Part shown: piece after piece, positions 6,924 through 38,379 of the stretch
How positions within the stretch are numbered: the stretch's first letter is position 1
How the letters are laid out: each line of letters opens with the position of its first letter
Source of the DNA: Myxococcales bacterium
Lineage (GTDB): Bacteria; Myxococcota_A; Polyangia; Polyangiales; Houyiibacteriaceae
Direction of reading: 5' to 3'
Length of the DNA: 64,000 bases
NCBI GenBank assembly: GCA_024640845.1
Contig: JAHEEE010000004.1
Coordinates: forward strand, 14,567 to 78,566
Notes under the pieces: generated by a model
Told to the model about the DNA's origin: nothing
Seen by the model: the letters and a program-made list of their open reading frames with translations, nothing else
Databases searched by the model: none
Made by a program: the position numbers and the translations under genes

Positions 6924-9008
<2,085 letters not shown>

Positions 9009-9030
9009 GACTCGCGAGTCCTACTTCGAG

Positions 9031-9070: not shown

Positions 9071-9086
9071 AGCTAAGGTAGGGGTC

Positions 9087-10727
9087 ATGGGCGACCCCAC
9101 TCAGACCTCCGCCTGGAAGGCGCTTCGCACTCACTTCGAGGAAGTTGCCGAGCTTCGGATGCGCGACCTCTTCGCCGGTGATCCGGCGCGTGCCGAACGG
9201 TTTTCGCTCTCCCTCGGCGATCTGCTCTTCGATTTTTCGAAGAATCGAGTTACCGAACACACGCTTTCGTTGTTGCTCGAGCTCGCGGAGCAGTGCCGGG
9301 TCCGTGATTGGGCAGAGCGCATGTTCGGCGGCGACCTGATCAACGGGACCGAAGGGAGAGCCGTCTTGCACACCGCGCTCCGCAACCGTGGCGACCGCGA
9401 GGTGCTCGTCGATGGTGTCGACGTCATGCCGGATGTTCGACGGGTGCTCGACCAGATGCGGAGCTTCACGACGTCCGTCCGCGAGGGCACATGGCTCGGC
9501 CACACCGGGCGTGCGATCACCGACGTCGTCAACATCGGGATCGGCGGCTCCGACCTCGGCCCCGTGATGGTCACCGAGGCGCTTCGCCCGTATTGGAAAG
9601 ACGGGCTCCGCGTGCACTTCGTCTCGAACGTGGATGGGACGCATTTGAGCGAGGCGCTTCGGCGCGTCGATCCGGAGACCACCTTGTTCATCGTCGCGTC
9701 GAAGACTTTTACCACGCAGGAGACGTTGACCAATGCCCGCTCCGCCCGCGCCTGGCTAGTGGAGCGCTTGGGCGCAGAGGAGGCCGTCGCAAAACATTTC
9801 GTCGCGCTTTCGACGAACCGCGATGCGGTTGTCGAATTCGGGATCGACCCGGACAACATGTTCGAGTTTTGGGACTGGGTAGGCGGCCGCTACTCGCTCT
9901 GGTCGGCGATCGGCCTTTCGATCGCAACCGTGATCGGGATGGACCACTTCGAAGAGCTGCTCGAAGGGGCCTATGAGACGGACGAGCACTTCCGGACGGC
10001 GCCACTCGCGAAGAACCTCCCTGTGATCATGGCGCTGCTCGGTATCTGGTACGACAACTTCTTCGGCGCCCAGTCGCAAGCGGTGTTGCCCTACGACCAG
10101 TATCTCCACCGGTTTCCGGCATACCTGCAGCAAGCAGACATGGAGAGCAACGGCAAGAGCGCCTCGCGTGATGGCACAATCATCGACAACTACACCACCG
10201 GACCCATCGTCTGGGGCGAGCCCGGGACCAATGGGCAACACGCGTTCTACCAGTTGCTCCACCAGGGGACACATTTGGTCCCCTGCGATTTCATCGTAGC
10301 GGCGAAGAGTCACAATCCAATTGGCAAGCATCACGACATCCTGGTCGCAAACTGTATCGCGCAGTCCGAAGCCCTCATGCGCGGAAAGACCGCTGACGAG
10401 GCGCGGGCCGAGCTCGAAGCCGCGGGGCTGCCCGAGGATCAGGTCGCCGCTCTGGTTCCGCACAAGACCTTCGCCGGCAACAGGCCGAGCAACACCTTCA
10501 TGATGGATGAGCTCACGCCGGCTGCTCTTGGGCGTTTGATCGCCCTCTACGAGCACAAGATCTTCGTGCAGGGCGTGGTATGGAACATCAACAGCTTCGA
10601 TCAGTGGGGCGTCGAGCTTGGCAAACAGCTTGCGAAGGTCATCCTGCCCGAGCTCAGTGGAGCCGAAGGCAACCACGACGCTTCCACCGAACGACTGATC
10701 CAGTACTATCGGGACCACAAGAGGTAA
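9087..10727 (+). CDS. pgi: Glucose-6-phosphate isomerase
   Basis: 546 aa with PGI signatures ('GIGGSDLGP', '[11 protein letters not shown]', '[12 protein letters not shown]'). Confidence 0.95.
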
Positions 10728-20600: not shown

Positions 20601-21110
20601 ATGGTTCCGCCGGGCAACCGGCTGTTGATTCGGCAGGGCGGCGCGGCCGACCTTGGTGCGGTCCTGCGGGTCTGCGAAATGCATGCCGAATACTGGGACG
20701 GACGACTTCGGAGCGAGATTGGCTTGTCCGCGTTTTTCGAGCGCGCGCTCAATGAGCAGGACGAGGTGTTCCAGTTCTGGGTCGCCGAGAACGGGCAGGG
20801 CTCCGTCGTCGGCTGGGAGATGCTTTCGGCGTTCACCGGAGATCCGGCGAGCCGACGGCTGACCGGCGAAACGACCACGGCTCTTGGCCGTCCAAGCGCG
20901 AGCCTTGGTCGCACGTTGGCTACGCACGCGGTCCGCCACGCCGCGCGCACTCCACTACAGTACCTGTTCGCCCGTGTTCCAACGCGGGATTTTCTCATGG
21001 TCAGCGTGCTCGAATCGGTGGGATACCATGAAGTCGGCGTCATTCCGCCATCGAGCAAGAGCCCGGCGCGTCCGGAACAGCTCGAATTCGTCTACGTCGT
21101 CGAAGGCTGA
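20601..21110 (+). CDS. GNAT-family N-acetyltransferase
   Basis: An acetyltransferase-like core follows 'LLIRQGGAADLGAVLRV'. The start is uncertain (GTG at 20520 or ATG at 20601). Confidence 0.6.
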   Translation: MVPPGNRLLIRQGGAADLGAVLRVCEMHAEYWDGRLRSEIGLSAFFERALNEQDEVFQFWVAENGQGSVVGWEMLSAFTGDPASRRLTGETTTALGRPSASLGRTLATHAVRHAARTPLQYLFARVPTRDFLMVSVLESVGYHEVGVIPPSSKSPARPEQLEFVYVVEG

Positions 21111-21171
21111 CGCCCACGTCGAGGTTGCCAGCCTGAACGATTCGGATAAGGTGACCGCTTCGGGAGACGCC

Positions 21172-21648
21172 ATGGCGACGAAGCAACCGACAAAGAAGCG
21201 GGCTAGCAAGGCTCCTGCAAAGAAGCGGGCTAGCAAGGCACCCGCAAAGAAACGAGCGAGCAAAGCGCCCGCGAAGAAGCGCGCAAGAAAGGCATCCGCG
21301 AAGAAGCGAGCGAGCAAAGCGCCTGCGAAGAAGCGCGCAAGCAGAGCCCCCGCGACGGCGAATCGACCGACCACGCCTGCACGCCCCCGGGCCAAGAAGG
21401 CAGCGCCAACGCCCGTATCAGCGCCAGCACCCGCGCCAGCGCCAGTGTCGCCGGTCGTTCCCCCACCTCCCTCGTCGTTCCCGCCGCCTCCCCGCGCCGC
21501 GTCGTATCTCGAGTCCGTCCCACAGGACCGTACGGAGCTCGTCGCTGGGCTCTTTCAGGTTGCCCGAGGCGCCGCCAAAGACTTGCGGACGCTGTTCACG
21601 CAGGCTCTTACGATGAGCCACAAGAAGAACGACCACGACGATCGATGA
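21172..21648 (+). CDS. Histone-H1-like Lys/Ala/Pro repeat protein
   Basis: Starts 'MATKQPT', followed by six KKRAS(K/R)APA units, a Pro/Ala linker and a short helical C-terminus. Its stop overlaps the next start (ATGA). Confidence 0.65.
   Translation: MATKQPTKKRASKAPAKKRASKAPAKKRASKAPAKKRARKASAKKRASKAPAKKRASRAPATANRPTTPARPRAKKAAPTPVSAPAPAPAPVSPVVPPPPSSFPPPPRAASYLESVPQDRTELVAGLFQVARGAAKDLRTLFTQALTMSHKKNDHDDR
21193..21354 (+). repeat. Six tandem 27-bp coding repeats (KKRASKAPA)
   Basis: aagaagcgggctagcaaggctcctgca is repeated head-to-tail six times with a few substitutions. Confidence 0.9.
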
Positions 21649-23043: not shown

Positions 23044-23781
23044 CTAGCGCTGCGAGAGGTCGAGTAGCCACATTGGCTCGACCTCGCTTCGGTGCCGCTC
23101 GACGGCGATGCGGGCGAGGTTCAACCAGCGGCTGCAGTCGTCCAAGATCGCGCTGTCTGCGGTCGCGGCGACGCCATGAGAGCGCTTGAGTGTCTCGTCG
23201 ACGCTATCAGCGGTCTCGGCGCAGAGCCTCGAATTGACCGCTGCGGCGGCCTTCCTTACGATTTCGGCGAGGCGTCCCGAGTTGGAGACCGGGCGGTCGA
23301 TGTAGACGACCGCCTCCGACGGTTGCAGCGAGTCGACGACGGCGACAAGGATTTGCACGGCGCGTTCGGTCTCATGGACGAGACGATAGCTCCCGTGGAA
23401 GCTCGCCATGTCGCGCAAGCATTGATCCCGTCCGAGTAGCAGCACGCCCCCCGCGAGCGCTACTTCGATCGTCGTGATCACATTGAGGCCATCGACGAAC
23501 AAGGGTTTGCCCGCGAGCTCGCCGGTCCGGAGGGCGCGCCTTGCACGTGAGGCCCGCTTGGTGTCCGCACACGCGCACCGTCCGACGGCGACGCGCTGGC
23601 GCTGACGCAACTGATGCCGATCGCCCACGAGCTTGATCGCGGATGGCTCTGCGTAGCCGCGCGTTCGAAGCCAGCTCAAGTCGTCAACCGCCTGTTTCAG
23701 CCGGGGCAGTGCATCGCTCGAAAACAACAGGGTGTCCTCGGGATGCGGACCGCGGTGACGGCGGGAATCCCCCATGCCCAC
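23044..23781 (-). CDS. DUF434-like protein with C-terminal NYN/PIN-like region (function unknown)
   Basis: 'LRTRGYAEPSAIKLVGDRHQLRQRQR' resembles the DUF434 signature as I remember it. 'LFVDGLNVITT' begins a YacP/NYN-like segment. The start is GTG at 23781 or ATG at 23775. Confidence 0.5.
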   Translation of the reverse strand: MGMGDSRRHRGPHPEDTLLFSSDALPRLKQAVDDLSWLRTRGYAEPSAIKLVGDRHQLRQRQRVAVGRCACADTKRASRARRALRTGELAGKPLFVDGLNVITTIEVALAGGVLLLGRDQCLRDMASFHGSYRLVHETERAVQILVAVVDSLQPSEAVVYIDRPVSNSGRLAEIVRKAAAAVNSRLCAETADSVDETLKRSHGVAATADSAILDDCSRWLNLARIAVERHRSEVEPMWLLDLSQR

Positions 23782-23868: not shown

Positions 23869-23881
23869 CGCAAAAAATGCG
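23869..23881. promoter_or_regulatory. Candidate enhancer (UAS) palindrome CGCA-N5-TGCG
   Basis: gaCGCAaaaaaTGCGcat, centred 82 bp upstream of the GG of the 23956 promoter. A degenerate partner CGCAagcatTTCC lies at 23898-23910. Confidence 0.55.
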
Positions 23882-23955
23882 CATAACTTCGTTTATCCGC
23901 AAGCATTTCCTGCCCCTCGGCGAGCGAGTCGAACGTTTCACGGGCTTTCTCGTTG

Positions 23956-23971
23956 TGGCACGCACTTTGCT
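23956..23971 (+). promoter_or_regulatory. Sigma-54 (-24/-12) promoter
   Basis: TGGCACGCACTTTGCT is a full match to TGGCACG-N4-TTGCW. It lies 22 nt upstream of the USP ATG at 23993. Confidence 0.7.
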
Positions 23972-23992
23972 CCAAGAGCTGTTCAGGTTTCG

Positions 23993-24472
23993 ATGAATCT
24001 CATGGGGTCTACCGTTCTTGCAGTCACGGATCTGACATCTGCGAGCTACAAGCTCGTGGGGTTCGCGGCCTTCATTGCGGGGCCGACCGACGGCGAGGTC
24101 GTGCTGGTGTCGACCTATGGCGGGGCTGGTGGGGGGCGACGTTCCGAGCCTCCGCCCAGTGAGCGCCGGAATCCAGATCGCTGGAGGGAAAAGGTCGAGG
24201 CGAGGCTCCGGCAGGAAGGCCAGCTCCTCGAGCGTCAGCGCCAGTGGTGCGCCGACCGCGGTGTGCGGTGCCGTGCCGAGCTCTACGAGGAAGGGCGGTG
24301 GCCCGATTTCGTGCTTCAGAGCGCCGAGCGCTCTCGTGTCGACCTGATTTTGGTGGGTATCCAACTGATGGCGTCCGCCGACCAGATCAGCGCCGCGGAT
24401 CTCAAGCGCCTCGTCGAGGACGCCCCGTGCCCGGTCAGCGTGGTGCGGCTTCCCGGCCTTTTTGCCTTCTGA
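23993..24472 (+). CDS. Universal stress protein (single, divergent USP domain)
   Basis: Starts 'MNLMGSTVLAVTD' and ends with 'VDLILVGIQ...APCPVSVVR', the USP hallmarks. The track ORF start at 23774 is an extension. Confidence 0.6.
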   Translation: MNLMGSTVLAVTDLTSASYKLVGFAAFIAGPTDGEVVLVSTYGGAGGGRRSEPPPSERRNPDRWREKVEARLRQEGQLLERQRQWCADRGVRCRAELYEEGRWPDFVLQSAERSRVDLILVGIQLMASADQISAADLKRLVEDAPCPVSVVRLPGLFAF

Positions 24473-24529
24473 GCGCCGGGGTCGCTTTGCGTGCTTGACA
24501 CCAAGGGCGCAATTTGTGAGCCACACCTC

Positions 24530-25708
24530 ATGGCCGACCCCAGCCTGCTCCCCACACTCCGCCAGTATGTGGGGTTTGACGATGCATCCGCTCAGCGCTT
24601 GCAGAGGCTCGCGCCGCGGATGCGTCGCTTCTACCAGGGCGTCGTGGACCAGTTCTACCAGGCGATTCTCGAAGACCCCGGCGCACGCGCGGTCCTGAAG
24701 AACGAAGCGCAGGTGAGCCGGCTCCAGGTCTCGTTGCGGGACTGGCTCGAAGGCCTGTTGTCTGGGCCCTACGATGAGCAGTACTTCGAGAAGCGCGCGC
24801 GAATCGGCCGCATGCACGTGAAGGTGGGGCTCGAGCAGCGGTACATGCTTTCCGCCATGAATGTGATTCGCGTGGGGTTGCACCGTGGTTTGTCGGAGAT
24901 CTCCACCCCCGGGCCGGCCCAAGTCCTCGATCACCGAGCCATCGACCAGATTTGTGACATCGAGCTCGCGATCATGCTCGAGACCTATCGAGAGGACTAT
25001 GTTCTCAAAAAGACGGCCGAGGCCGAGTCTCTCGCAGTGATGGGCCGGCTCACGGCAGGTTTGGCGCACGAGGTGAGGAATCCTCTCAACGCTGCCAAGC
25101 TTCAACTCGACGTGCTGCGACGCAATGCTGCGGCCGTGCAGGAGGAATCGACTCGACGCAAGATCGAGCGTCGCACCAATCTCGTACAGGACGAGCTTCG
25201 CAGGCTGTCACTCTTGCTAGACGACTTCCTCAACCTCGCGCGCGCGCGCAGACTCGACCCAGTGCGATGTGAAGCTGGTGCGCTACTCACCGAGGTCATC
25301 GAGCTTCGGCGTCCTGAGATCGAGTCGCAGGGTATCGAGTTCATCGACGACATCGACTGCGCCCCCTGTGAGCTCGATGCCGAGCGCGATCGCTTGAAGC
25401 AGGTGGTCAACAACCTGATCACGAACGCGGTCGAAGCCGTGGCCGAAAGCGGCCAACCGCGCATTCAAATCACCAGCCGCGCGGGCGGCGAGCGATGGGA
25501 GGTGGCGGTCATCGACAACGGGCCTGGCATCTCCCCCGAGGTCGGCGCTCGCGCGTTCGAGTCGTTCGTCACCACCAAGGACGCGGGCACGGGTCTCGGC
25601 TTGGCGATCGTCAAGCGAATCATCGATCTGCACGGCGGACGGGCCGCCCTGGCCCCGGAGCCGAGTGGCGGGACCCGCGCATCCTTCTGGATCCCATCCC
25701 GGGGCTAG
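24530..25708 (+). CDS. Globin-coupled sensor histidine kinase
   Basis: The N-terminal protoglobin/GCS domain ('RIGRMHVKVGLEQRYML') holds a candidate proximal His. It is followed by the HisKA H-box 'GLAHEVRNPLN' and HATPase_c motifs 'DNGPGI' and 'GTGLGLAIV'. Confidence 0.85.
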   Translation: MADPSLLPTLRQYVGFDDASAQRLQRLAPRMRRFYQGVVDQFYQAILEDPGARAVLKNEAQVSRLQVSLRDWLEGLLSGPYDEQYFEKRARIGRMHVKVGLEQRYMLSAMNVIRVGLHRGLSEISTPGPAQVLDHRAIDQICDIELAIMLETYREDYVLKKTAEAESLAVMGRLTAGLAHEVRNPLNAAKLQLDVLRRNAAAVQEESTRRKIERRTNLVQDELRRLSLLLDDFLNLARARRLDPVRCEAGALLTEVIELRRPEIESQGIEFIDDIDCAPCELDAERDRLKQVVNNLITNAVEAVAESGQPRIQITSRAGGERWEVAVIDNGPGISPEVGARAFESFVTTKDAGTGLGLAIVKRIIDLHGGRAALAPEPSGGTRASFWIPSRG

Positions 25709-25715
25709 AAGACAA

Positions 25716-27164
25716 CTAGTCGAGAGCGGGCGCTTGGTAACCCCACTCTTTGACGCGGTACTGGATCTTTCGTTGACTGATCCCGAGAATCTCGGCGGCT
25801 CGTGCCGTGGAGCCGTCGACTGCGTCGAGCGTGCGCAGGATCGCGATTCGTTCGAGCTCCGACATCGTGATGCCTGGAATCAGGGCCAAGATCGAACCAT
25901 CCTGCATGTCGCCGTGCGCAGAGGTTGGTAGGTCATCGCGTCGGATCAGATCGCCCTCGCACATGACCACAGCGCGCTCGATCGCATTCTCGAGCTCGCG
26001 CACGTTGCCGGGCCATGGGTAGATCATCAGGTGCTGCAGAGCCTCATCAGTGAGGCCCTTCACCGGCCGATCGTTCTCCTTGGCGTACTTGCGGAGGAAC
26101 CCTTGAGCCAGAAGCGGAATGTCGCTCCGCCGGACGCGGAGCGGTGGAACGTCTAGCTGGACGACCTTGAGCCGGTAGTAGAGGTCCTCTCGAAATCGAC
26201 CCTCATCCACGCGCTGCTTCAGGTTGCGGTTCGTCGCCGCGACTACGCGGACATCTACCTTGAGCGTTTCGTTGCCGCCAACGCGCTCGAACTCTCGCTC
26301 TTGGAGGAAGCGCAGAAGCTTGATCTGCACGCTCGGTGGGATTTCGCTGACTTCGTCCAGGAACAACGTGCCGCCATCGGCCTGTTTGAAGCGACCTTCA
26401 CGTCTACCCGCCGCGCCGGTGAAGGAGCCGCGCTCGTGACCGAACAGCTCCGACTCGAGGAGCGTCTCGCTCAGTGAGGCACAATTGAGCCGAATGAACG
26501 GTTTGTCTTTTCGCTTGGAATTCTGGTGGATCGCGGCCGCGATGAGCTCTTTGCCCGTCCCGGTTTCGCCGTGAATGAGCACCGTTGCGCGGCTCCCAGC
26601 CACCTGGGCGACGTTCTTCATCAGCCGTTGCATCGACGGGTGCTCGCCGATGATATTGCCGAACTGAAAGCGCTCGTCGACGCGCTGGCGAAGCTGGGCG
26701 GCTTCACGGCTAAGTCTCGTTCGCTCGAGCGCGCGGTCGACGATGGCGATGACAGCATCGAGCTCGAGTGGCTTGGTCAGATAGCTTTCCGCTCCGAGCT
26801 TGATCGCTTTGACCGCGGTATCGATCGTCGCGAATGCAGTCATCACGATGAAAGTCGCGTGCGGCGCGATCGGACGCCCCCGCTCGATGAGGGACAGCCC
26901 ATCCATTCCGGGCATCTTGAGATCAGTCAGTACGACGTCGGGGTCGGCTTGCTCCACCTGCAGCAGCGCAGTCCTCCCGTCGGCGGCGGTGCTCACCGAG
27001 TACCCAGCATCGTCGAGTAGCTCCGCGAGCGCGTTCCGCGCATTCGCCTCGTCGTCGACGACGAGGATCTTCCCTTTTCGTCCATCGGAACGCAGCGGGA
27101 GGGTTGTGGTCAGGTCGGATGCTGAGGCTGAGGTTACGCTTGTCATGGTATTTCTGTTCGGCAT
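25716..27164 (-). CDS. Sigma-54-dependent response regulator (NtrC-family bEBP)
   Basis: Has a REC domain ('KILVVDDE...VLTDLKMPGMDG'), an AAA+ domain with 'GETGTGKE' and 'GSFTGA' (a GAFTGA variant), and a C-terminal Fis-type HTH ('AAEILGISQRKIQYRVKEWG'). Confidence 0.93.
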   Translation of the reverse strand: MPNRNTMTSVTSASASDLTTTLPLRSDGRKGKILVVDDEANARNALAELLDDAGYSVSTAADGRTALLQVEQADPDVVLTDLKMPGMDGLSLIERGRPIAPHATFIVMTAFATIDTAVKAIKLGAESYLTKPLELDAVIAIVDRALERTRLSREAAQLRQRVDERFQFGNIIGEHPSMQRLMKNVAQVAGSRATVLIHGETGTGKELIAAAIHQNSKRKDKPFIRLNCASLSETLLESELFGHERGSFTGAAGRREGRFKQADGGTLFLDEVSEIPPSVQIKLLRFLQEREFERVGGNETLKVDVRVVAATNRNLKQRVDEGRFREDLYYRLKVVQLDVPPLRVRRSDIPLLAQGFLRKYAKENDRPVKGLTDEALQHLMIYPWPGNVRELENAIERAVVMCEGDLIRRDDLPTSAHGDMQDGSILALIPGITMSELERIAILRTLDAVDGSTARAAEILGISQRKIQYRVKEWGYQAPALD

Positions 27165-27175
27165 CTAGTTGGTGT

Positions 27176-28603
27176 CTAAGTCGGTGCGGAGGCTCCCTTG
27201 CCCCCCGAAATCTCAGGAGCTCTAGCGGCGGCGAGCTCCATGTACTCGGCGAACGCGTTCTCGAGGTCTTCGACGAATTCGTGGACGTCCGGGAACGATT
27301 CCCAATCCGCGTTGAACCCCCAGTGCAGGCCACCGTTATAGCTGAATAGCGCGATGCCGAGATTCTGGTTCCGCATCAGTGGCACCATCGGAAAAATGGC
27401 TTTCATCGGTGCGCCCAGGAGGTACAGCGGAAGCGGCGGTCCGGGCACGTTGGTGATGACGAGGTTGTAGGTGCGGAGCTGCATCGCAGCCTTGTAGAGC
27501 TCAGAGACGATGCGCTTGGTAGTGAGGTCCGCGATTTCTTCGATGAGCTCGGCGCCACCTGTCTGGTTGGACTCTTTCTTGAGCTTCGTCGTGATCGCGA
27601 TCACCTTCTTCAGCCGCTCGATCGGGTTGGGCTCGGAGATCGGCAAATCAGCGAGCAACATGGCGACGTGGTTGCCGCCGGACGCGCCGCCTACCTTGCG
27701 CGTGTTCACCGGCAGCATCGTTCGGAAGCCTTCGATCGCGTCGACGTCTTCATTGCGACGAATGAGGAAACGGCGGACCGCGCCGGTCGTGGTAGCGACC
27801 ACGACATCATTGATGGTGCCGCCAAGCGTGTTCTTGACCGCTTTGACGTCATCGAGCCGAAGTGACGTCCAGTCGAACCGCCGGTAGGGGCTGATGTCGC
27901 GCTCCGTGAACATGGTCTTGGGGGCCGGAATCATCCCTGACATGAGGAGACGGCGAACGCCTTGGAAGTTGTCGCGAACTCGAGGCATGAAGTGTGTAAG
28001 CTCGCGGATACCTTCCACCCGGTGCTTGAGCTCGGACCGGACGAGCTCGAGACGCCCTGGCGCAGGGCGAGGCTTCCATTCCTTGGGTACTCGCTCCTCT
28101 GCGTTCGGCATGATCTGCAAGAGAGCCTGGAGAAGCTCCACACCCGCGACGCCGTCGACCATGCAGTGGTGCACCTTGACCACGAGCGCAAACCTGTCGT
28201 TCTCGACGCCTTCGACGACCCAAAACTCCCAGAGTGGACGGCTGCGATCGAGATGCTGAGAAAACAGTCTTCCAACCAGCCGCTTCAGCGAACGCTCGTC
28301 GCCTGGCATCGGCAAACGGGTGTGTCGCAAGTGGAAGTGCATGTTGAACCGTTCGTCGTCGACCCACACCGGGTGTTTCAGGCCAGGCACGTACTCCACC
28401 CGCTGCCGGTAACGCGGGATCGAGTCGAGAGCGGCCTCGGTGTACCGCGTGAGTCGCTCGATATCGAGACCGCCATGATCCAACATCAGGGGTTTGGCAT
28501 CGAAGAGGAGGGCAGCGCCAACATGCATCGGCGCCGTCTTCGCTTCGACGTCCAGGAAGGTGGCGTCCAGGGCGCTCAAACGCTCGTGGAATGTATCCGG
28601 CAT
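27176..28603 (-). CDS. Wax ester synthase/diacylglycerol acyltransferase (WS/DGAT)
   Basis: Has the active-site motif 'HHCMVDGVAG' (HHxxxDG) and the N-terminus 'MPDTFHERLSALDATFLDVE'. Its stop is 11 nt upstream of the bEBP start. The track start at 28624 is a TTG lying inside the promoter. Confidence 0.9.
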   Translation of the reverse strand: MPDTFHERLSALDATFLDVEAKTAPMHVGAALLFDAKPLMLDHGGLDIERLTRYTEAALDSIPRYRQRVEYVPGLKHPVWVDDERFNMHFHLRHTRLPMPGDERSLKRLVGRLFSQHLDRSRPLWEFWVVEGVENDRFALVVKVHHCMVDGVAGVELLQALLQIMPNAEERVPKEWKPRPAPGRLELVRSELKHRVEGIRELTHFMPRVRDNFQGVRRLLMSGMIPAPKTMFTERDISPYRRFDWTSLRLDDVKAVKNTLGGTINDVVVATTTGAVRRFLIRRNEDVDAIEGFRTMLPVNTRKVGGASGGNHVAMLLADLPISEPNPIERLKKVIAITTKLKKESNQTGGAELIEEIADLTTKRIVSELYKAAMQLRTYNLVITNVPGPPLPLYLLGAPMKAIFPMVPLMRNQNLGIALFSYNGGLHWGFNADWESFPDVHEFVEDLENAFAEYMELAAARAPEISGGKGASAPT

Positions 28604-28619
28604 GGCAGCGGTCCTATCT

Positions 28620-28635
28620 AGCAAGATGCGAGCCC
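28620..28635 (-). promoter_or_regulatory. Sigma-54 (-24/-12) promoter candidate
   Basis: The minus strand reads GGGCTCGCATCTTGCT. GG-N10-GC spacing is correct, the -12 TTGCT is perfect, and the -24 reads GGGCTCG versus TGGCACG. Confidence 0.55.
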
Positions 28636-28689
28636 ATACGTGTTTCCAACAATATTGCGATTGACAGGTGTTCTCAGGCCCGCGGAGGG

Positions 28690-28732
28690 TGCAAACGATG
28701 CGTATGGCGTTTTAGGAGACGCATAATATGCG
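28690..28732. promoter_or_regulatory. Tandem UAS candidates (TGCA-N5-TGCG and CGCA-N5-TGCG)
   Basis: TGCAaacgaTGCG (28690-28702) and gaCGCAtaataTGCGcc (28720-28732) have centres 30 bp apart. They lie 62 and 92 bp upstream of the minus-strand -24 element. Confidence 0.55.
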
Positions 28733-28786
28733 CCACCCCTCCTCAACACCAGCCCTGTCGCTGAAGATCGGATAAATAGGAGGACG

Positions 28787-29221
28787 ATGTCTCAGCTTCT
28801 GACGCGAGAGTTGATGACCCAGCCGGTGATTACGGTCGGGCCAATGAGCCCTCTTCGTGAAGTGATCAACCTCATGGAGACCCACCGAGTTCGCCACGTA
28901 GCGGTGGTCGAGCCTGATACGGAACGCCTGCTCGGTTTGATTTCGCACCGCGATGTCTTGCGAAGCCAGGAGGGGAGCCTCTCTGGCTCGCCGTCAGAAG
29001 AACAAGTTCACATGAACCGGTGGATCGAAGCACGTTGGGTGATGACGAAAGAAGTGCGCACGGTCTATCCCGAAACACCCGCGCTCGAGGCAGCCCTCAT
29101 GTTGCGGTCACAGGGATATGGATGCGCACCTGTCGTCGAGCATGGTCGCTTGGTTGGCATCTTAACCGAGGCGGATTTCGTGGATTACGCAATTCGAATC
29201 TTGTCTGATCCAGGGGTCTGA
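28787..29221 (+). CDS. CBS-pair domain protein
   Basis: 144 aa with two CBS motifs ('HRVRHVAVV', 'GCAPVVEHGRLVGILTEADF'). An AGGAGG ribosome-binding site lies 5 nt upstream. Confidence 0.85.
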   Translation: MSQLLTRELMTQPVITVGPMSPLREVINLMETHRVRHVAVVEPDTERLLGLISHRDVLRSQEGSLSGSPSEEQVHMNRWIEARWVMTKEVRTVYPETPALEAALMLRSQGYGCAPVVEHGRLVGILTEADFVDYAIRILSDPGV

Positions 29222-29261: not shown

Positions 29262-29277
29262 TGGCACGGTGCTTGCT
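29262..29277 (+). promoter_or_regulatory. Sigma-54 (-24/-12) promoter
   Basis: TGGCACGGTGCTTGCT is a full consensus match. The ATG of the tandem USP lies only 14 nt after the -12 C. Confidence 0.7.
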
Positions 29278-29289
29278 GCAGTATGGTGC

Positions 29290-30180
29290 ATGACCATCAA
29301 GACGATTGTCGTCGGCACCGATCTCGGCGAGTCCGGGCGGCGAGCGATGCAACTGGCGGTTCAAACTGCCCGAGCGACGAACGCAACGCTCTGGCTGGTG
29401 CATGCAAGCGAGGTCGGCTTGGAGCACGGACTGCGCGAGTCGCCGCTCGGCGTTGCCGCCCACGCGCTGCGCCAGCGGATCAAGGGACGCTTCGAGAGCT
29501 CGCTGCAGAAGCTCGAGAGCGAGCGCAGGGAATGCGAGACCGCGGGCTTGAGTTGCCAGACTTCGTGCGAAGAGGGTCAGCCGTGGGAGACGATCCTCCG
29601 AACGGCCGTTTCGGTCAACGCCGACCTGATCGCCGTTGGCGATCCGGCGGGCTCAATTGGCTTGCCCGAGCGGTTGCTCGGCTCGACCGCCGAACGGGTC
29701 GTGCGACAGGCGCCCTGCTCGGTCTTGGTGGTTTGCGGGCGGACTCGAGAGGACTACCAAGGAGCTCGCATCGCGGTCGGGGTCGACTTCTCGCCTCACG
29801 GCATCGAAGCGGTTCGCTGGGCCCGTGACGTGGCGAGCGCCGTCAACGGGGAGGTCGCCCTGTTTCACGTGGTCCCTCATCCGATCACCGAAACCATGCT
29901 GCCCACTGAATGGCCGAGCGTGCTGAGGGGGCTCGCTTCGGCTGCACATGCACGGCTCACCCAACTCGTCGTCAGTGAGGGGCTCGCACCCAATACCTCG
30001 ATTCGCGTGCTCGATGGCGCGGTTGGCAAGATGCTCTGCAATGCGGTCGCCGAAGCCGAGGCCGACTTGCTCTTCGTAGGCAGCAGGGGGCATGGGCGGC
30101 TGCGTGGCATCATGCTCGGAGACACCCCGCAGTACTGCCTGCGCTACTCTCCGGTGCCTGTGCTTGCCGTGCGTCCCTGA
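29290..30180 (+). CDS. Universal stress protein, tandem USP domains
   Basis: Starts 'MTIKTIVVGTDLGESG'. Contains 'ADLIAVG...APCSVLVV' and a second domain 'ARIAVGVDFS...ADLLFVGSRGHGRL...SPVPVLAV'. Confidence 0.9.
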   Translation: MTIKTIVVGTDLGESGRRAMQLAVQTARATNATLWLVHASEVGLEHGLRESPLGVAAHALRQRIKGRFESSLQKLESERRECETAGLSCQTSCEEGQPWETILRTAVSVNADLIAVGDPAGSIGLPERLLGSTAERVVRQAPCSVLVVCGRTREDYQGARIAVGVDFSPHGIEAVRWARDVASAVNGEVALFHVVPHPITETMLPTEWPSVLRGLASAAHARLTQLVVSEGLAPNTSIRVLDGAVGKMLCNAVAEAEADLLFVGSRGHGRLRGIMLGDTPQYCLRYSPVPVLAVRP

Positions 30181-32918: not shown

Positions 32919-35900
32919 CTACAACCACTTCTGAATATGCATTCCGAGCGCCGCTGGCCTCATCGGCGCTCGGTTCCTTGGGAGTACCCGGAAGCGAAGC
33001 TCGTGGCCGCCGCTTGCTCTCACGGCGAAGGCGCCTCGCCAGGTGCTGCGGTTTTCGGCGCCCTCCGATTCAAAGGAGACGACGATCCGGGATGACGGCT
33101 CGTTCTTTTTTCGGCCGAACGAGACGACCGCTTCGACCTCGAGGTCTCGGGCGTCGAGCCCGGGATGGTGGAGCGTCAACTCGGCCGAGACGTGCGTCCC
33201 GACGACGATCTCGTTGCTGCTCAGACCTCCAAAGCGCACGCTCTCCATCGTGATGTCGTTCCAGTGCGTGCGGACTTCTTCGGCAACGTCGGCGAGGGCG
33301 AAGAGTGGACGATAGTTCGACTCGCGAAGCGCGATCGCATCTTGCATGGCGGGCTCATAGAACATGTCCGCATAGTTCGTGAGCATTCGACGGGACGAGA
33401 AACGCGGAATGATGCTCGCCATGCTCGCCTTCATGCGTTCGACCCACGCGACCGGCACGCCCTCCGCATTGCGATCGTGGTACTCGGGCAGAATTTCGCC
33501 CTCGAGCAGCGCCATCGTGATCGCACGGTCGTACGCGCTCGGATCGTGAATCGAAGACGAGGGCAGGTCGATTACCCAGCCATTATCCCCTTGGTAGCCC
33601 TCGAGCCACCAACCGTCATCGACGCTGAGGTTCACACAGCCGTTCATGGCGGCTTTCATACCCGAGGTGCCGCTCGCTTCGAGCGGGCGCGTTGGCGTGT
33701 TTAGCCAGACGTCGCACCCGGCAACCATCCGGCGCGCCTCGTCGATCGAGTAGTCCTCCATGACGATGACGCGGCCCGCAAGCGAGGGGTGCTTCGAAGC
33801 CTGGTAGACTCGCTGGAGGAGCGCCTGGCCATGCCCATCGGCCGGGTGGGCCTTGCCGGCATAGATCATCGTGGCGCCCAGGGTGCCTTCGAGGAGCTTG
33901 GCAAGGCGCTCGGGATCGGCCAGCAACAAGTCGGCGCGCTTGTACGGGGCAAAGCGCCGCGCAAAGCCGATCAGCAGACGGTCCTCGTCGAGGTGGTCGA
34001 GGATGTCCCGCAGCAGCGACAGGTCTTCGCGACGCCTCGTCCAACTCTGGGTCAGGTGCTCTTTCAGCCAGTCGATGTAGTCGGCGCGCAGCTCGCGATG
34101 AATCGACCAAATCTCAGCCGGGTCGTGTTTGCGGAGCCACTTCCACTGGAACCGATCTTCGATCCTGTTGCGCCAATCGTGCCCCATCTCGCGCTCGAAG
34201 AGGCGTTGCCATCGCGGCGCCACCCAGGTCGAGACGTGGACGCCGTTGGTGATGCTGGTGCAAGGGACGTCGTCTGCGTCGTCGAGCTCGGGATAGAACT
34301 GGAGAAACATGTTGCGGGCGACTTCACCGTGCTTCGCGCTCACGCCGTTGATCCGCTCGCAGTTTCTCACGGCGAGCGCGGTCGTGCCGAACTCGTTCGG
34401 AGCGCCGTTTGGTGTATTGCCGATCGCCATCAGGCGCGGCCAATCCATACGAAGCACGTGCTCGAAGCGCGTCAGATACGGGCGCACCATCTCTTCGGGG
34501 AAGTGGTCGTGCCCTGCTGGCACCGGAGTGTGTGTCGTAAAGACAGTCGTGTTGCGGATGTACTCGAATGCTTCTCGTGACCTGAGACCGTGGCGCTGAA
34601 TCAAGTGAGCCGCGCGCGCGATGATCAAGAACGCGCTGTGCCCCTCGTTCATGTGGAACACGTCTGGCTCGATATCGAGCTCGGTCAGCATTTGGTATCC
34701 GCCGAGGCCCAGGATCATCTCTTGACGCAGACGATGCGCAGAGTCGCCGCCGTAAAGACGGTTGGTAATCGCTCGGTCCTCCGGACGGTTCTCGGGCAGG
34801 TTGGTATCGAGCAAGAACAGCGGCACCCGTCCGACCTCGAGTCGCCAAGCGCTCACTTGCACGGGCCCAGTCGGCAGTGGAACCGTCACCCTGAGCGGCG
34901 CGTACTGACCAGCCATCACCTGCTTGAACGGCGGGCTCCCGAAGTCGTTGGTGTCGCTGAGGTGCTCTTGGTGTCCGTCCCGGTCGATCATTTGGCGGAA
35001 GTAGCCATCATGGTAGGCCAGGCCAACGGCGCACAAAGGCAAGTCCAAGTCGCTGGCGGCCTTCAGATGGTCGCCGGCGAGAATGCCGAGGCCGCCCGAA
35101 TAGAGCTTCAGAAACCCAGCGATGCCGAACTCCATGCAGAAGTACGCAATTCTAGGGTCCTTGGCCTGCGTCGCCTCGGACATCTCGCGAGCGGACCGTG
35201 CAACGTCGGCGACGTAGCCTTCGTCCAACGCGAGGTTCATCAAACGCTCGGGCTTGACCTGATCGAGAAGAGCGTGCGGGTTCTCTTCGAGTTTGAACCA
35301 CAGCTCGGGATCGATCTTCTTGAACAAGGAGGCGACTTCGGGGTGCCAGCGCCACCAGAGATTGGCGGCGATGTCTTGAAGCGGTCGCAGCTCGCTCGGG
35401 AGCGCGTTGGTCACCGAGAAGGTGCGAGTGTAGGGGGCGGCCTCCTCGCCCTCCTTGGCGGGAGGGATCACGAATGCACCGAAGACGCCGGAATCTCCCG
35501 AGATCGTTGGCGTCGACGGGACGCTCAGCCGCTCCATGGGCAGTTCCTTGCGTCGGGCTGCGCCGGCCTCCAGCGCGAGCTGGTGTGCCCGCTCATAGTG
35601 CTCCATGAAGTTCGACCAGTCGGTCAGCGCCGCGGTTTCGAGCGAAGCTTGCCCGAGAGCTTCGCGATCCTCGGGTGGCAGATCGATGAACTCGAGCATG
35701 GCCTTCTTGAGGACGTCGCTCACCTCGTCGAAGGACACTCCCTCGCGCTTGAGCACGCGAACACCGGTGCGCTTGCCTTCGCCAAGTGAGGCGGCCCAGC
35801 GCCCGAATCCGGCGCGGTCGGTCGTGATCGCGGGGACCCCGAAGGCCACGGCCTCGAGCGGCGTGTAGCCCCACGGTTCGTAGAAGGAGGGGAATACGCC

Positions 35901-37172
35901 GAGGTCCGCCCCGGGAAGGAGGTCCCAGTACTTCTGGCGAATCAATAGGTCGGTGCCGTCGAGGTAGATCGGGACATGCACGACGTGCACGGGTGCGCCG
36001 TGCGTGTTCTCGACGCCCAACGCGTTGAGCTGATTGGTGATCGGATCGTTCGCCTCGTCGACCAGGTCGTGCGTGCAGCGCAGTGGCGACCCCGCCGCGG
36101 AGCCATGCGCGCGATCCCACAGCGCGCGCTTCGGCTCTGCGTGACCGGCCGGAAGCATGGCATATACGATCACCCGTTTGCCGTCGCGAGACGCAAGCTC
36201 TTCCGGTAGGCCGAAGGCTGCCTCGAAGTAGACGTCCACGCCCTTGTTGACGTACTCGTATCGGCCGGCGAGCGCGAAGATGAGCGTCTTTTCGCGGTCG
36301 TATCGGTCGCCGGTCGTGAGCTCTGCGAGCTTGAAAAGCTCCTCTCTCGCCTGCTGGCGTTGCTCGTGAGCGACTGGTTTGGCGCCAAACCCGTTGGGCA
36401 GAATCACGTCTGGCGTTCGGCCTAACAGATACCGGCATTCGAGCGCGGTGATCTCGCTAACGGTCGTGAAGACGTCTGCCTCGCGCGCCGCGACGGATTC
36501 CATCGAATGCTTCGACGAGACGTTGAGCTCTTTCGCGGCCACTTCCGGGTCGACGTTCGGCAGCGATTGGTAGAAGTTCGGGTCTGCGCGGCGTCCTGCC
36601 AGCGAGCGTCCGAGCATCGTTGCATGGGTCGTGAACACCGTGCCGATCTCAGGCGCCGCCGTCTGGAGGTGTAGAATCGCGGCGGCGGACATCCACTCGT
36701 GGGCCTGCACGAGGGCTTTCTGCCGTCCGGGCAGCAGGAAACGGTCACGAATGTGTTCGATGATCATGCCTGCCGCGTGTGCAAACAAGACCGGGTCGTA
36801 GTAGTCCCAGGCGCCGAACAACGAATCGAGCCCGTACTTCTCCCAGTAGCGGCCGAGAATCTCGTCCTTGCGCGGGTAGAGGCTCGAGTGATTGATCAGC
36901 AGGCACCGAGGCTCCCCTGGCACGAGCCAACGGCCCATCTCGATCCCGATCTCGTGGTCTCGAAGCGATTCGGCAAGCGCGCTATCCCAAATATCGGGGC
37001 GAAACTCGGGGGCGACCCCCTCGGCGCGTGGGACGTCGGGGCCGATCGTGATGTATCGGTCTTCGCCGTGGCGCTGCTGAACCTCCGGGACGCGGCTCGC
37101 CAACACGGTGTGGATACCGCCCACCATGTTGCAGACTTCCCAGGAGATTTCGAAGAACACCGCTCTGCTCAT
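32919..37172 (-). CDS. Fusion protein: GT3 (eukaryote-type) glycogen synthase + GT35 alpha-glucan phosphorylase
   Basis: 1417 aa. The N-terminus 'FFEISWEVCNMVGGIHTVL' resembles the GT3 glycogen synthase N-terminus. The C-terminal half has 'YFCMEFGI', 'GGLGILAGDHLKAASDL' and the PLP-Lys motif 'EASGTSGMKAAMNG' of alpha-glucan phosphorylases. Confidence 0.85.
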   Translation of the reverse strand: MSRAVFFEISWEVCNMVGGIHTVLASRVPEVQQRHGEDRYITIGPDVPRAEGVAPEFRPDIWDSALAESLRDHEIGIEMGRWLVPGEPRCLLINHSSLYPRKDEILGRYWEKYGLDSLFGAWDYYDPVLFAHAAGMIIEHIRDRFLLPGRQKALVQAHEWMSAAAILHLQTAAPEIGTVFTTHATMLGRSLAGRRADPNFYQSLPNVDPEVAAKELNVSSKHSMESVAAREADVFTTVSEITALECRYLLGRTPDVILPNGFGAKPVAHEQRQQAREELFKLAELTTGDRYDREKTLIFALAGRYEYVNKGVDVYFEAAFGLPEELASRDGKRVIVYAMLPAGHAEPKRALWDRAHGSAAGSPLRCTHDLVDEANDPITNQLNALGVENTHGAPVHVVHVPIYLDGTDLLIRQKYWDLLPGADLGVFPSFYEPWGYTPLEAVAFGVPAITTDRAGFGRWAASLGEGKRTGVRVLKREGVSFDEVSDVLKKAMLEFIDLPPEDREALGQASLETAALTDWSNFMEHYERAHQLALEAGAARRKELPMERLSVPSTPTISGDSGVFGAFVIPPAKEGEEAAPYTRTFSVTNALPSELRPLQDIAANLWWRWHPEVASLFKKIDPELWFKLEENPHALLDQVKPERLMNLALDEGYVADVARSAREMSEATQAKDPRIAYFCMEFGIAGFLKLYSGGLGILAGDHLKAASDLDLPLCAVGLAYHDGYFRQMIDRDGHQEHLSDTNDFGSPPFKQVMAGQYAPLRVTVPLPTGPVQVSAWRLEVGRVPLFLLDTNLPENRPEDRAITNRLYGGDSAHRLRQEMILGLGGYQMLTELDIEPDVFHMNEGHSAFLIIARAAHLIQRHGLRSREAFEYIRNTTVFTTHTPVPAGHDHFPEEMVRPYLTRFEHVLRMDWPRLMAIGNTPNGAPNEFGTTALAVRNCERINGVSAKHGEVARNMFLQFYPELDDADDVPCTSITNGVHVSTWVAPRWQRLFEREMGHDWRNRIEDRFQWKWLRKHDPAEIWSIHRELRADYIDWLKEHLTQSWTRRREDLSLLRDILDHLDEDRLLIGFARRFAPYKRADLLLADPERLAKLLEGTLGATMIYAGKAHPADGHGQALLQRVYQASKHPSLAGRVIVMEDYSIDEARRMVAGCDVWLNTPTRPLEASGTSGMKAAMNGCVNLSVDDGWWLEGYQGDNGWVIDLPSSSIHDPSAYDRAITMALLEGEILPEYHDRNAEGVPVAWVERMKASMASIIPRFSSRRMLTNYADMFYEPAMQDAIALRESNYRPLFALADVAEEVRTHWNDITMESVRFGGLSSNEIVVGTHVSAELTLHHPGLDARDLEVEAVVSFGRKKNEPSSRIVVSFESEGAENRSTWRGAFAVRASGGHELRFRVLPRNRAPMRPAALGMHIQKWL

Positions 37173-38371
37173 GGTCGAGTTCGCTTTTCCGCGGGCGCCA
37201 ACACAGAGAGCTTCAAGTCTTTCATGACGTTCATATAGTGGATAAACGCGTCGTAGGGTCCCTCATAAGGGCTGAAGTAGTCGTGCACCTCGCCGTCTGA
37301 GGCCAATTTGGTCGCCATGTAGTAGAAATGGTCCGATGTCTGCAAGCGTCTCCATAGGGCGAGAAGATGAGAATTGTTGCGACGGCGGACCGCCGGGCCG
37401 ATCGAGTAAACTTCGTTCAGCGCCCGCTGCTGCATGGCGTTACCGCGCCAGGCGCTGATGTCGCGAGCCGCATCGGCCCAGGATACCGTTCGATGGAAGG
37501 GGAGCTCGCCTAGGGCGGGGTAGCGGTCGACCACCTGGCTGGGCGTCTGGATGTCCCAATGGGGGTGGGTGAACAGGAGGTCGGGTAGGTGCTCGAGGAA
37601 ATCGAAAATACCCGTCTCCTTCCACTGGTGCTCACCGAACGTTTCGTAGTCCATGAACAGATTGATGACGTCCCCGACACCGCTATGGCCGTGAACCCAG
37701 CCGGCGAACTTCTCAGCCGTCAATGGATACTCCGCCCAGGCTCGGTTCGAGAAACGAAACGCGATGTCGTCGGAGAGCTTGTAGTTCTTGGCGAGAAGGC
37801 GCATTTCGCGCCCGGCGACCTTGTAGACGAAATTGGGGCTTCGCCAATCCAGGATGTCGTCGGCGCCTTCACAGAGCATCGCGTCAAACCCGAGGTCCGC
37901 GATGAATTGCCCGATTTCGTCGTTGTAGATGAGCTCCGTGTTCCGGAAGATGCGGGGGGTTTGGCCGAACTCCTTCTTCATGAGCTCGATCTGCATGTCG
38001 ATCTGGGCTCTAAATTCGTCCTTGTCGTAGAGCGCGGCAAGGCTGTGATAATACGTCTCGGCGACGAACTCGACAGCCCCGGTTTCGGCGAGACGCACGA
38101 AGCTGTCCATCACCTCGGGCGCGTATTTCTTCATCTGCTCGATGGCGACGCCAGTAAGCGCGTACGAGATGCGAAAGCGACCGTCGGTACGCTCGATCAG
38201 ACGCAGCATCGAGTTGTTCGCTGGTAGGTAGCACTTGTCAGCCACCTTCCGAAGGACTTCGGCGTTGAGCTTGTCGTCGAAATACTCGTGGTCGCGACCG
38301 ACCTGGAGCGCACCGTACGGCCGTAGTCGATACGGCTGGTGCACCTCGAAATAAAAACAAACCGACGGCAT
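37169..38371 (-). CDS. Glycoside hydrolase family 57 (alpha-amylase/branching-enzyme family)
   Basis: Starts 'MPSVCFYFEVHQPYRLRPY' (GH57 region I) and contains 'DYETFGEH'. Its stop overlaps the downstream start by 4 nt. Confidence 0.85.
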   Translation of the reverse strand: MPSVCFYFEVHQPYRLRPYGALQVGRDHEYFDDKLNAEVLRKVADKCYLPANNSMLRLIERTDGRFRISYALTGVAIEQMKKYAPEVMDSFVRLAETGAVEFVAETYYHSLAALYDKDEFRAQIDMQIELMKKEFGQTPRIFRNTELIYNDEIGQFIADLGFDAMLCEGADDILDWRSPNFVYKVAGREMRLLAKNYKLSDDIAFRFSNRAWAEYPLTAEKFAGWVHGHSGVGDVINLFMDYETFGEHQWKETGIFDFLEHLPDLLFTHPHWDIQTPSQVVDRYPALGELPFHRTVSWADAARDISAWRGNAMQQRALNEVYSIGPAVRRRNNSHLLALWRRLQTSDHFYYMATKLASDGEVHDYFSPYEGPYDAFIHYMNVMKDLKLSVLAPAEKRTRP

Positions 38372-38379
38372 GATTCACC

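Follow-up and report, generated by a model that had tools for sequence, protein, structure and literature searches.

A stretch of 64,000 nucleotides from a Myxococcales bacterium (GenBank assembly GCA_024640845.1, contig JAHEEE010000004.1, positions 14,567 to 78,566), referred to below as the window, was analyzed for a putative oxygen-responsive two-component locus. Two two-gene units converge at this locus. On the plus strand, a divergent gene for a universal stress protein (USP, 23993-24472) is followed by a globin-coupled histidine kinase gene (24530-25708). On the minus strand, a gene for a WS/DGAT acyltransferase (wax ester synthase/diacylglycerol acyltransferase, 27176-28603) precedes that of a sigma-54 enhancer-binding response regulator (25716-27164), hereafter the activator. 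The WS/DGAT and activator genes were separated by 11 nt, the stop codons of the kinase and the activator lay 7 nt apart, and the two convergent units were spaced as the first-pass annotation, made from the letters alone, had described. Further on the plus strand lie the genes of a CBS-pair protein (28787-29221; Pfam) and of a tandem USP (29290-30180; two Pfam Usp domains, 169 bits).

The four-gene layout and the domain calls of that annotation were borne out by Pfam profile searches, in which both Protoglobin and Sigma54_activat were recovered. The kinase matched Protoglobin (103 bits), HisKA (42 bits) and HATPase_c (93 bits) and carried the H-box AGLAHEVRNPL. Its ATG at 24530 yields a protein of 392 aa, homologues being 392-396 aa long, and the nearest database protein (97% identity) was labelled 'MAG: Polyangiales bacterium', MAG denoting a metagenome-assembled genome. 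The activator matched Response_reg, Sigma54_activat (251 bits), AAA_lid_14 and HTH_8, and its translation contained GSFTGA, the Walker A motif GETGTGKE, the phospho-Asp region LTDLKMP and the KP pair. The acyltransferase matched WS_DGAT_cat and WS_DGAT_C, contained HHCMVDG and scored 410 bits with NCBIfam TIGR02946, the cutoff being 310. The WS/DGAT unit itself stood as first annotated, but its listed start codon, TTG at 28624, did not; because that codon falls within the -12 element described below, the ATG at 28603 is the likely start. The USP heading the kinase operon was a weak match (Usp, 30 bits). No terminator-like hairpin was seen at the kinase and activator ends (25706-25718), and the two transcripts would be expected to overlap in antisense if both promoters are active. 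Scans for sigma-70 promoters and terminators over 23-30.5 kb gave nothing above chance.

The locus was compared with 47 orthologous loci from MAGs of Polyangiales, Myxococcales and Sandaracinaceae. The shared gene order was a ferredoxin-reductase-like gene, an optional DUF434 gene, the USP and the kinase, then the convergent activator and WS/DGAT genes, and finally the CBS gene, the tandem USP gene and an AAA_33 gene. The weakly matching USP was syntenic in every orthologous locus extending that far. In the window a DUF434 and DUF5616 gene (23044-23781, minus strand) separates the USP promoter from the ferredoxin-reductase-like gene; it was kept in most orthologous loci. Two contigs of the single MAG MFD09779.bin.2.182 (loci L018 and L043) each carried a complete syntenic locus, with 73-74% identity to the window kinase, which reflects either a paralogous duplication or a mixed bin.

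Each unit was preceded by a -24/-12 element of the sigma-54 type, and both elements had been pointed out in the first-pass annotation. The element of the USP-kinase operon, TGGCACGCACTTTGCT at 23956-23971 (plus strand), matched TGGCACG-N4-TTGCW exactly, and its predicted transcription start lies at about 23982. The element of the WS/DGAT-activator operon, GGGCTCGCATCTTGCT at 28620-28635 (minus strand), was weaker, with two mismatches and a predicted start at about 28609. A third element, TGGCACGGTGCTTGCT at 29262-29277 (plus strand), was again exact and lay before the tandem USP, its predicted start being about 2 nt 5' of the ATG at 29290. This one had been overlooked, and the two target promoters that had been named, rightly, are among at least 6-7 candidate target promoters in the window. 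Exact matches to TGGCACG-N4-TTGCW numbered 2 in the 64 kb when 0.01 were expected, and matches with at most one mismatch numbered 7 against 0.45 expected. With two mismatches allowed, 15 were found and 10 expected, and GGGCTCGCATCTTGCT taken alone was not significant.

The positions of these elements were conserved. The USP-kinase element was located 34-39 nt before the ATG in 43/43 loci, with an N4 spacer that varied freely, and the tandem-USP element 28-30 nt before the ATG in 35/36. In about 36 of 37 orthologous loci, the WS/DGAT operon had its element (GGGCTCRCATYTTGCT) at -31/-32; the weak -24 half of this element was accepted because this conservation supports it, although the score does not. 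The GG and GC were 10 bp apart within TGGCAC-N5-TTGCW, at conserved positions. Two further candidates were discounted, one at 62942 where the GG was missing and one at 56832 within a gene. The nearly leaderless element-to-start distances were also conserved in orthologues, and sequences resembling Shine-Dalgarno motifs (AGGA/GAAGGG) would sit upstream of the predicted starts.

Palindromic CGCA-N5-TGCG sites, of the type bound by the regulator NmpR of Myxococcus xanthus, were found upstream of both units, as had been claimed, and include those at 23869 and 28720. Site S1, CGCAAAAAATGCG at 23869-23881, lies upstream of the USP-kinase operon and is followed 29 bp downstream by a degenerate second site, CGCAAGCATTTCC at 23898-23910. 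Between the divergent WS/DGAT and CBS genes two sites were located 30 bp apart, at 28690-28702 (one mismatch) and at 28720-28732 (exact). The site centres were 62-92 bp upstream of the -24 GG. In the window, CGCA-N5-TGCG occurred 13 times, compared with 4.0 +/- 2.0 expected, a count reached by 0/100 shuffles, and pairs spaced 29-30 bp apart occurred 4 times, compared with 0.03 expected. Single palindromes at 12365, 29524, 34726 and 45518 had no promoter element with them, being located within genes or next to them, and were taken as chance, since about 4 are expected in the window.

A site of the S1 type was located at about -120 before the USP in 37/43 orthologous loci, and the sites on the WS/DGAT side recurred at -127/-97. 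Across the lineage the sites read R-CGCA-(A/T-rich N5)-TGCG-Y. Per-column conservation over 37-43 loci was restricted to the -24/-12 blocks and the palindromes, and for this reason the noncoding motifs were judged to be real. The genes, both elements and the palindromes were kept in about 45 related Polyangiales/Myxococcota genomes, and the motifs and genes of the locus were confirmed as described. In the four loci that lack the CBS gene the sites were 83-113 bp upstream of the tandem-USP promoter. A sigma-54 promoter for the CBS gene itself was rejected, as the 55 bp that separate the sites from its ATG contained no recognizable -24/-12 element. A moderately conserved block, CCTGTCGCTGAAGATC at 28745-28770 (plus strand), lies upstream of the CBS gene and may be a different promoter or an operator.

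The first-pass annotation had held that no hypoxia circuit leading from a globin-coupled kinase through a bacterial enhancer-binding protein (bEBP) and on to sigma-54 had been described. This statement fails because the NmpRSTU system of M. xanthus already is such an oxygen circuit (Bretl et al. 2018, PMC6211767; McAllister et al. 2025, PMC11841059). NmpU is a kinase with Protoglobin, HisKA and catalytic (CA) domains, homologous to AfGcHK, and its H96A substitution abolishes both haem and autokinase activity. It phosphorylates NmpT, a protein of two receiver (REC) domains acting as a phospho-sink, and the receiver of NmpS (REC-HisKA-CA). Phosphorylated NmpS is off and unphosphorylated NmpS phosphorylates the NtrC-like NmpR, and in this way NmpS turns an O2-ON kinase into a hypoxia-ON output (PMC6211767, PMC11841059). 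NmpR was demonstrated by electrophoretic mobility shift assays and reporters to bind GCGCA-N5-TGCGC, usually at two sites (S1 and S2) with a gap of 14-15 nt, and a sigma-54 site was required (PMC11841059). It autoregulates, with a 6.5-fold induction in hypoxia. Its targets comprise its own operon, headed by mxan_4236, the counterpart of the window's CBS gene, together with the nmpU operon, a USP, a P-type ATPase with cbb3 oxidase, and hemN-hemerythrin; a link between USPs and hypoxia has also been drawn (PMC11841059). According to the NmpRSTU literature, Anaeromyxobacter also has nmpS and nmpR. AfGcHK had been put forward as an outside example signalling to an ordinary response regulator; it is itself the NmpU homologue, and that regulator is the NmpT phospho-sink. 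The remainder of the earlier proposal, a haem-globin kinase acting with a sigma-54 activator on autoregulated operons, survived without its novelty. This circuit reading holds because the homologous Nmp system has been shown experimentally step by step and because motifs and gene order alike are retained across the related genomes.

The Nmp proteins were further used as references. Two Anaeromyxobacter-like loci (L074, L075) came from frameshifted long-read assemblies and were replaced by 80 NmpU-type metagenome loci; a search with the AfGcHK globin yielded mostly fragments. The reference loci encode a globin kinase, a REC-REC protein, a REC kinase and then a convergent REC-AAA+ regulator, nmpT and nmpS being placed between nmpU and nmpR. 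The activator was compared with 20 NmpR-class proteins encoded beside nmpUTS, rather than with M. xanthus NmpR itself, and showed a median identity of 57% over 446 aa. Its helix-turn-helix (HTH) segment, GSTARAAEILGISQRKIQYRVKEW, was nearly identical to that of the NmpR class, GSTSRAAE.LGISVRKIQYRLKEY, with the common core GST.RAAE.LGIS.RKIQYR.KE. Helix alpha1 of its receiver, the kinase-docking helix, read VDDEANAR.AL, compared with VDDE.NAR.AL in NmpR. The receivers that partner NmpU differ, being VDDN..LV.NL in NmpS and VDDNRAFAENL in the first receiver of NmpT. As in the NmpR class, putative tandem GCGCA-N5-TGCGC sites with 14-15 nt gaps were present upstream of the predicted sigma-54 promoters; two 15-bp sites with such a gap give 29-30 bp from start to start, which is the spacing in the window.

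The kinase comprises a Protoglobin sensor, a 24-residue linker, a dimerization and histidine phosphotransfer (DHp) domain of the NmpS/AtoS type and a CA domain. The globin was 43% identical to that of NmpU and its top PDB match was the AfGcHK globin (E 5e-31). Among the orthologues, the distal Tyr45 was conserved in 46/46, Leu68 in 44/46 and the proximal His99 in 46/46; the window kinase is predicted to bind haem. The transmitter was of another kind. Its DHp was 47% (44-53) identical to NmpS, compared with 27% (22-32) to 69 NmpU-type kinases, and it shared NmpS-specific positions after the phospho-His and in helix 2. The NmpU-type DHp signature (GSIGHELRNPLGVIE...) with its 23-residue linker was not found in the window kinase. 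Measured from YRED to the His, the linker spanned 24 aa in all 45 kinases of the window type and 23 aa in all 76 of the NmpU type, the extra residue being placed directly after YRED. A phmmer search with the transmitter alone, exhaustive over 1.84 billion representatives, scored NmpS at 146 bits and NmpU at 90 bits. The best curated NCBIfam matches were AtoS (160 bits) and ZraS (123 bits) for the transmitter, and AtoC (519 bits) and ZraR (458 bits) for the regulator. On these grounds the transmitter belongs to an NmpS-containing, AtoS/ZraS-like subfamily and not to that of NmpU; a derivation from NmpS is not demonstrable.

About 15 representative clusters consisted of globin kinases with the window-type DHp, and the nearest of these (about 50% identity) retained the 24-residue linker. 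Two loci with kinases about 50% identical (L157, L158) retained the convergent REC-sigma54-HTH_8 partner together with flanking USPs. Their partners were 67-70% identical to the window activator and had the same HTH, and L157 also carried paired NmpR-type sites. Since the two-gene module was kept in such distant relatives, it was considered to be old, widespread and distinct from the NmpU clade. Some other arrangements were recorded. In L156 (8001-10659) a window-type globin kinase converges with an FHA-sigma54-HTH_8 activator lacking a receiver, with two stand-alone REC genes upstream; L154 carries nmpU-nmpS-nmpR without nmpT; and L140 (265-2667) is a single stop-to-stop frame of globin, kinase, receiver and kinase domains, which may represent a fusion of NmpU and NmpS or else an artefact.

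Apart from the kinase and the activator, the 64-kb window holds no gene for a kinase, receiver, bEBP or globin, and none turned up in the 712 kb that surround 49 orthologous loci. No NmpS-like hybrid kinase (REC-HK) or NmpT-like REC-REC protein was thus found in either. The general circuit being known, what appears to be new is the wiring, in which no NmpS or NmpT is found nearby, the kinase has an NmpS/AtoS-like DHp and a longer linker, and the receiver is NmpR-like. The missing partners and the different transmitter are the unusual feature of the locus, and it had been overlooked earlier.

The same motifs were found beyond the kinase/activator locus and mark a larger putative regulon. At 32919-41861 (minus strand) a glycogen operon, assigned by Pfam, encodes a debranching enzyme, a GT4/glycogen-synthase-like protein, a GH57 protein and a 1417-aa glycogen synthase-phosphorylase fusion. 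The latter open reading frame (ORF; 32919-37172) joins a glycogen synthase domain of the eukaryote type (PF05693) to DUF3417 and to an alpha-glucan phosphorylase domain. Upstream of the operon, a sigma-54 element, TGGCACGCCTCCTGCT at 41922-41937 (minus strand), was recovered in the consensus scan among the matches with at most one mismatch, and two exact NmpR-type sites are placed 30 bp apart upstream of it (42000-42012 and 42030-42042).

A divergent control region at 45929-46075 contains two exact NmpR-type sites 29 bp apart (45976-45988 and 46005-46017). On its minus-strand side, a -24/-12-like element, TGGCGCATTCTTTGCA at 45929-45944, precedes a putative regulon operon of hemerythrin (45430-45891), a tandem USP (44498-45394) and a 278-aa protein without an assigned family (43616-44452). 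On the plus-strand side, the element TGGCACGAAGCTTGAT at 46060-46075 precedes two single-domain USP genes (46091-46570 and 46574-46984). The hemerythrin and USP genes were assigned by Pfam. The layout at the glycogen and hemerythrin/USP regions is the same, namely a -24/-12 element with two sites 29-30 bp apart located 60-125 bp upstream.

Next to these genes lies a cbb3 oxidase cluster (46994-54816, minus strand) encoding DsbD_2, the P-type ATPase CcoI, a CcoS-like ORF, a CcoNO fusion, CcoP and CcoG. The families were assigned by Pfam, except for the ccoS-like ORF, which was named from its reading frame and position and had no family match. The 3' end of ccoI contains a pair of NmpR-type sites (51843-51855 and 51873-51885), which lies just upstream of the ccoS-like ORF and ccoNO-ccoP-ccoG. 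A -24/-12 element between this pair and ccoS/ccoNO was not accepted, as the weak GGGTCGCAGCTGTGCT was seen by eye only and the scan gave nothing. Before DsbD_2-ccoI, a candidate element, TGGCATATGGGTTGCG at 54854-54869 (minus strand), and a single NmpR-type site 39 bp upstream of it (54901-54913) were tentatively recorded. Within ccoI, CGGCACGGACTTTGCT at 52017-52032 (minus strand) matches the -24/-12 consensus with one mismatch, and the site pair at 51843-51885 lies 130-170 bp downstream of it; if functional, this would be an unusual enhancer-downstream arrangement. Taken together, sites and promoters precede both regulator operons, USP genes and hemerythrin, and sites also occur inside the cco cluster, the CBS gene being without a -24/-12 element. 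From these motifs the putative regulon would comprise USPs, WS/DGAT, the glycogen operon, hemerythrin and, probably, the high-affinity cbb3 oxidase cluster. The flanks of this island (6924-10727 and 60343-63998) also carry genes of energy conservation, for a H+-pyrophosphatase, a phosphoglucose isomerase and subunits A-C of Na+-NQR, and no adjoining NmpR-type sites were found there. An ORF at 20884-21648 (plus strand) carries tandem KKRASKAPA repeats and is Lys/Ala-rich and histone H1- or AlgP-like; mirror ORFs on the opposite strand are repeat artefacts.

Based on these comparisons, it was proposed, with a probability of roughly 0.7, that the locus is a two-component relative of NmpRSTU in an uncultured member of the Polyangiales, in which an O2-sensing kinase would control a sigma-54 low-oxygen and storage programme by direct phosphotransfer. 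The cytoplasmic haem-globin histidine kinase would sense O2 and phosphorylate the adjacent NmpR-like regulator directly. The regulator would bind the tandem GCGCA-N5-TGCGC sites, which are spaced by 29-30 bp and placed about 60-125 bp upstream of the -24/-12 promoters, and would open sigma-54 RNA polymerase complexes by ATP hydrolysis. Both the WS/DGAT-activator and the USP-kinase operons would be among its targets, giving positive autoregulation, together with several USP genes, hemerythrin, the glycogen operon and probably the cbb3 oxidase cluster; such targets would together form a programme of low-oxygen respiration and of storage or dormancy. Direct phosphotransfer without NmpS or NmpT is suggested because the partner-type surfaces match and no intermediary is encoded nearby.

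The sign of the response was considered separately. Because the targets are of a hypoxia type and neither the window nor the sampled neighbourhoods yielded an inverter, the kinase would probably be net-ON in its deoxy form and, with O2 bound, OFF or a phosphatase, which is the opposite of AfGcHK and NmpU. Signal-inverted variants of the engineered kinase YF1 are in a +1 helical register (PMC11164954), and the one-residue-longer linker may be related to such an inversion. A deoxy-ON globin-coupled kinase would have a sign not reported in the globin-kinase literature consulted. That nature has rewired the system in this Polyangiales lineage and its relatives, a single deoxy-ON globin kinase, with its sensor joined by the longer linker to an NmpS/AtoS-type transmitter, having replaced the NmpU/NmpT/NmpS inverter to drive an NmpR-like bEBP directly and a programme both DosR-like and cbb3-containing, is put forward tentatively, at somewhat less than even odds.

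Several observations weigh against the proposed mechanism. The CA domain of the kinase was 41% identical to both NmpU and NmpS and did not discriminate between them. The transmitter was nearer (180-206 bits) to other Protoglobin kinases, with or without PAS, and to REC-PAS-HK, REC-HK and PAS-HK proteins than to NmpS; because such closer relatives exist, the DHp supports a receiver partner of the NtrC family but not the exact partner. For the same reason, the idea of a literal recent chimera of an NmpU globin and an NmpS transmitter was softened; the three-group tree behind it had no outgroup and a short branch joining the window-type and NmpS groups. The additional linker residue is suggestive only, as the DHp subfamilies compared differ. 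The search for NmpS and NmpT covered the window and the 712 kb of neighbourhoods, and an inverter may be encoded elsewhere.

The promoters and the regulon are open to similar objections. The gene rpoN is not encoded within the 64-kb window. The -24 half of the WS/DGAT promoter is poor (GGGCTC), and four predicted leaders are only about 11, 6, 2 and 5 nt long (23956-23993, 28603-28635, 29262-29292 and 46060-46093, respectively). In the window, no site lies within 200 bp of the tandem-USP promoter. The element TGGCGCATTCTTTGCA is ambiguous, as it matches the -24/-12 consensus with two mismatches and also the NmpR site GCGCA-N5-TGCG with one. The conservation of motifs in orthologues covers the kinase/activator locus, the related loci stopping short of the glycogen, hemerythrin and cco regions.

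We also considered a relay as in M. xanthus. An O2-ON globin kinase would then act on an inverter of the NmpS/NmpT kind whose genes lie elsewhere in the genome, and that hybrid kinase, instead of the adjacent globin kinase, would phosphorylate the activator. This logic is experimentally established in the only characterized relative, and AfGcHK is O2-activated (PMC8697598). The search was confined to the window and the neighbourhoods, and REC-HK hybrids with similar transmitters are common, a REC being present in 89 of the top 150 representatives. Such a relay is nevertheless unlikely. The hybrid and REC-REC genes were absent from all the DNA surveyed, though nmpUTS are contiguous in the reference loci, and the convergent pair was kept down to about 50% identity. 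The kinase DHp is unlike that of NmpU, which docks the first receiver of NmpT and the receiver of NmpS, and like that of NmpS, which docks NmpR, and alpha1 of the activator receiver is of the NmpR type.

Direct wiring with the sign of AfGcHK was judged quite unlikely. In this case the O2-bound kinase would be ON and the regulon oxygen-induced, serving re-aeration or storage while O2 lasts. The haem-pocket residues are identical, and in all characterized family members, AfGcHK and NmpU, activity requires haem and is seen in the oxy or ferric form. WS/DGAT and glycogen synthesis could also suit storage in an energy-replete cell. High-affinity oxidases, however, are normally induced at low O2, and the targets overlap the hypoxia-induced NmpR regulon in cbb3 with a Cu-ATPase, hemerythrin, USPs and CBS. 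In addition, the linker is always one residue longer than in NmpU-type kinases, and a change of this kind inverts YF1 (PMC11164954).

Sensor globins bind several diatomic gases, and the globin could instead sense NO, CO or the haem redox state, in which case the regulon would answer nitrosative or redox stress. Activity with CO or in the ferric form is also a property of AfGcHK, and in other bacteria USPs and hemerythrin are responsive to NO or to redox stress as well. This reading is very improbable, given that the distal Tyr, which in AfGcHK forms a hydrogen bond to O2, is invariant, that the homologous Nmp system is hypoxia-responsive in vivo (PMC11841059) and that no NO-detoxifying genes are present in the regulon within the window.

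As the general circuit is known, the finding opens no new category. If direct wiring and the inverted sign are both true, two solutions would exist with the same sensor fold, output regulator and DNA site, one using a relay inverter and the other a re-coupled junction of sensor and transmitter. The locus would then offer a comparative system for how globin sensors pass their ligand state to the DHp bundle and for why bacteria build multi-step relays. The Nmp regulon concept would be extended from oxygen utilization to carbon storage, as triacylglycerol or wax ester and as glycogen, in abundant uncultured myxobacteria of sediment and soil, in parallel with the mycobacterial dormancy regulon. 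Database labels such as 'HydH' or 'HAMP domain-containing kinase' are also corrected for hundreds of environmental sequences of the family.

Among known systems, NmpRSTU is the closest. Common to both are a Protoglobin-HisKA-HATPase sensor with the same haem ligands, a REC-AAA+-HTH_8 output regulator, tandem GCGCA-N5-TGCGC sites 29-30 bp from start to start and sigma-54 promoters. Autoregulation of the sensor and regulator operons, putative in the window, and the overlapping targets (CBS, USP, Cu-ATPase with cbb3, and hemerythrin, again putative) are shared as well, and the sensor and regulator genes converge as in Anaeromyxobacter-like loci. In contrast to NmpRSTU, the window pair has no adjoining NmpS or NmpT in the approximately 49 genomes sampled, WS/DGAT, not CBS, is the first gene of its activator operon, its putative targets add WS/DGAT and the glycogen operon with no pilR link seen, and the predicted O2 response of its kinase is the opposite.

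AfGcHK of Anaeromyxobacter sp. Fw109-5 (PDB 5ohe) shares the globin-DHp-CA architecture, a length of about 390 aa and the residues Tyr45, Leu68 and His99. However, it is an NmpU orthologue, O2-activated, that passes phosphate to a REC-REC NmpT homologue; its DHp is about 27% identical to that of the window kinase and its YRED-to-His linker has 23 residues instead of 24. AtoS/AtoC and ZraS/ZraR are cognate sigma-54 pairs with the same direct logic from a kinase to a REC-AAA+-HTH regulator. All window scores were far below their equivalog cutoffs, their sensors are periplasmic or PAS domains rather than a globin, and their signals and regulons are unrelated.

DosS/DosT-DosR of Mycobacterium tuberculosis is a functional analogy only, its regulatory parts having no homology to those of the window. 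DosS/DosT are haem kinases active when deoxy, and the system autoregulates a USP-headed operon. The DosR regulon is rich in USPs and includes the WS/DGAT triacylglycerol synthase tgs1 and a CBS-pair protein. The sensor, however, is a GAF-haem protein and the regulator is of the LuxR/NarL type acting on sigma-70 promoters, whereas the window encodes a bEBP that would act with sigma-54. FixL-FixJ differs likewise by a PAS-haem sensor, a FixJ/NarL-type regulator and independence of sigma-54, but its O2-inhibited haem kinase controls cbb3 genes with the sign that was predicted for the window kinase.

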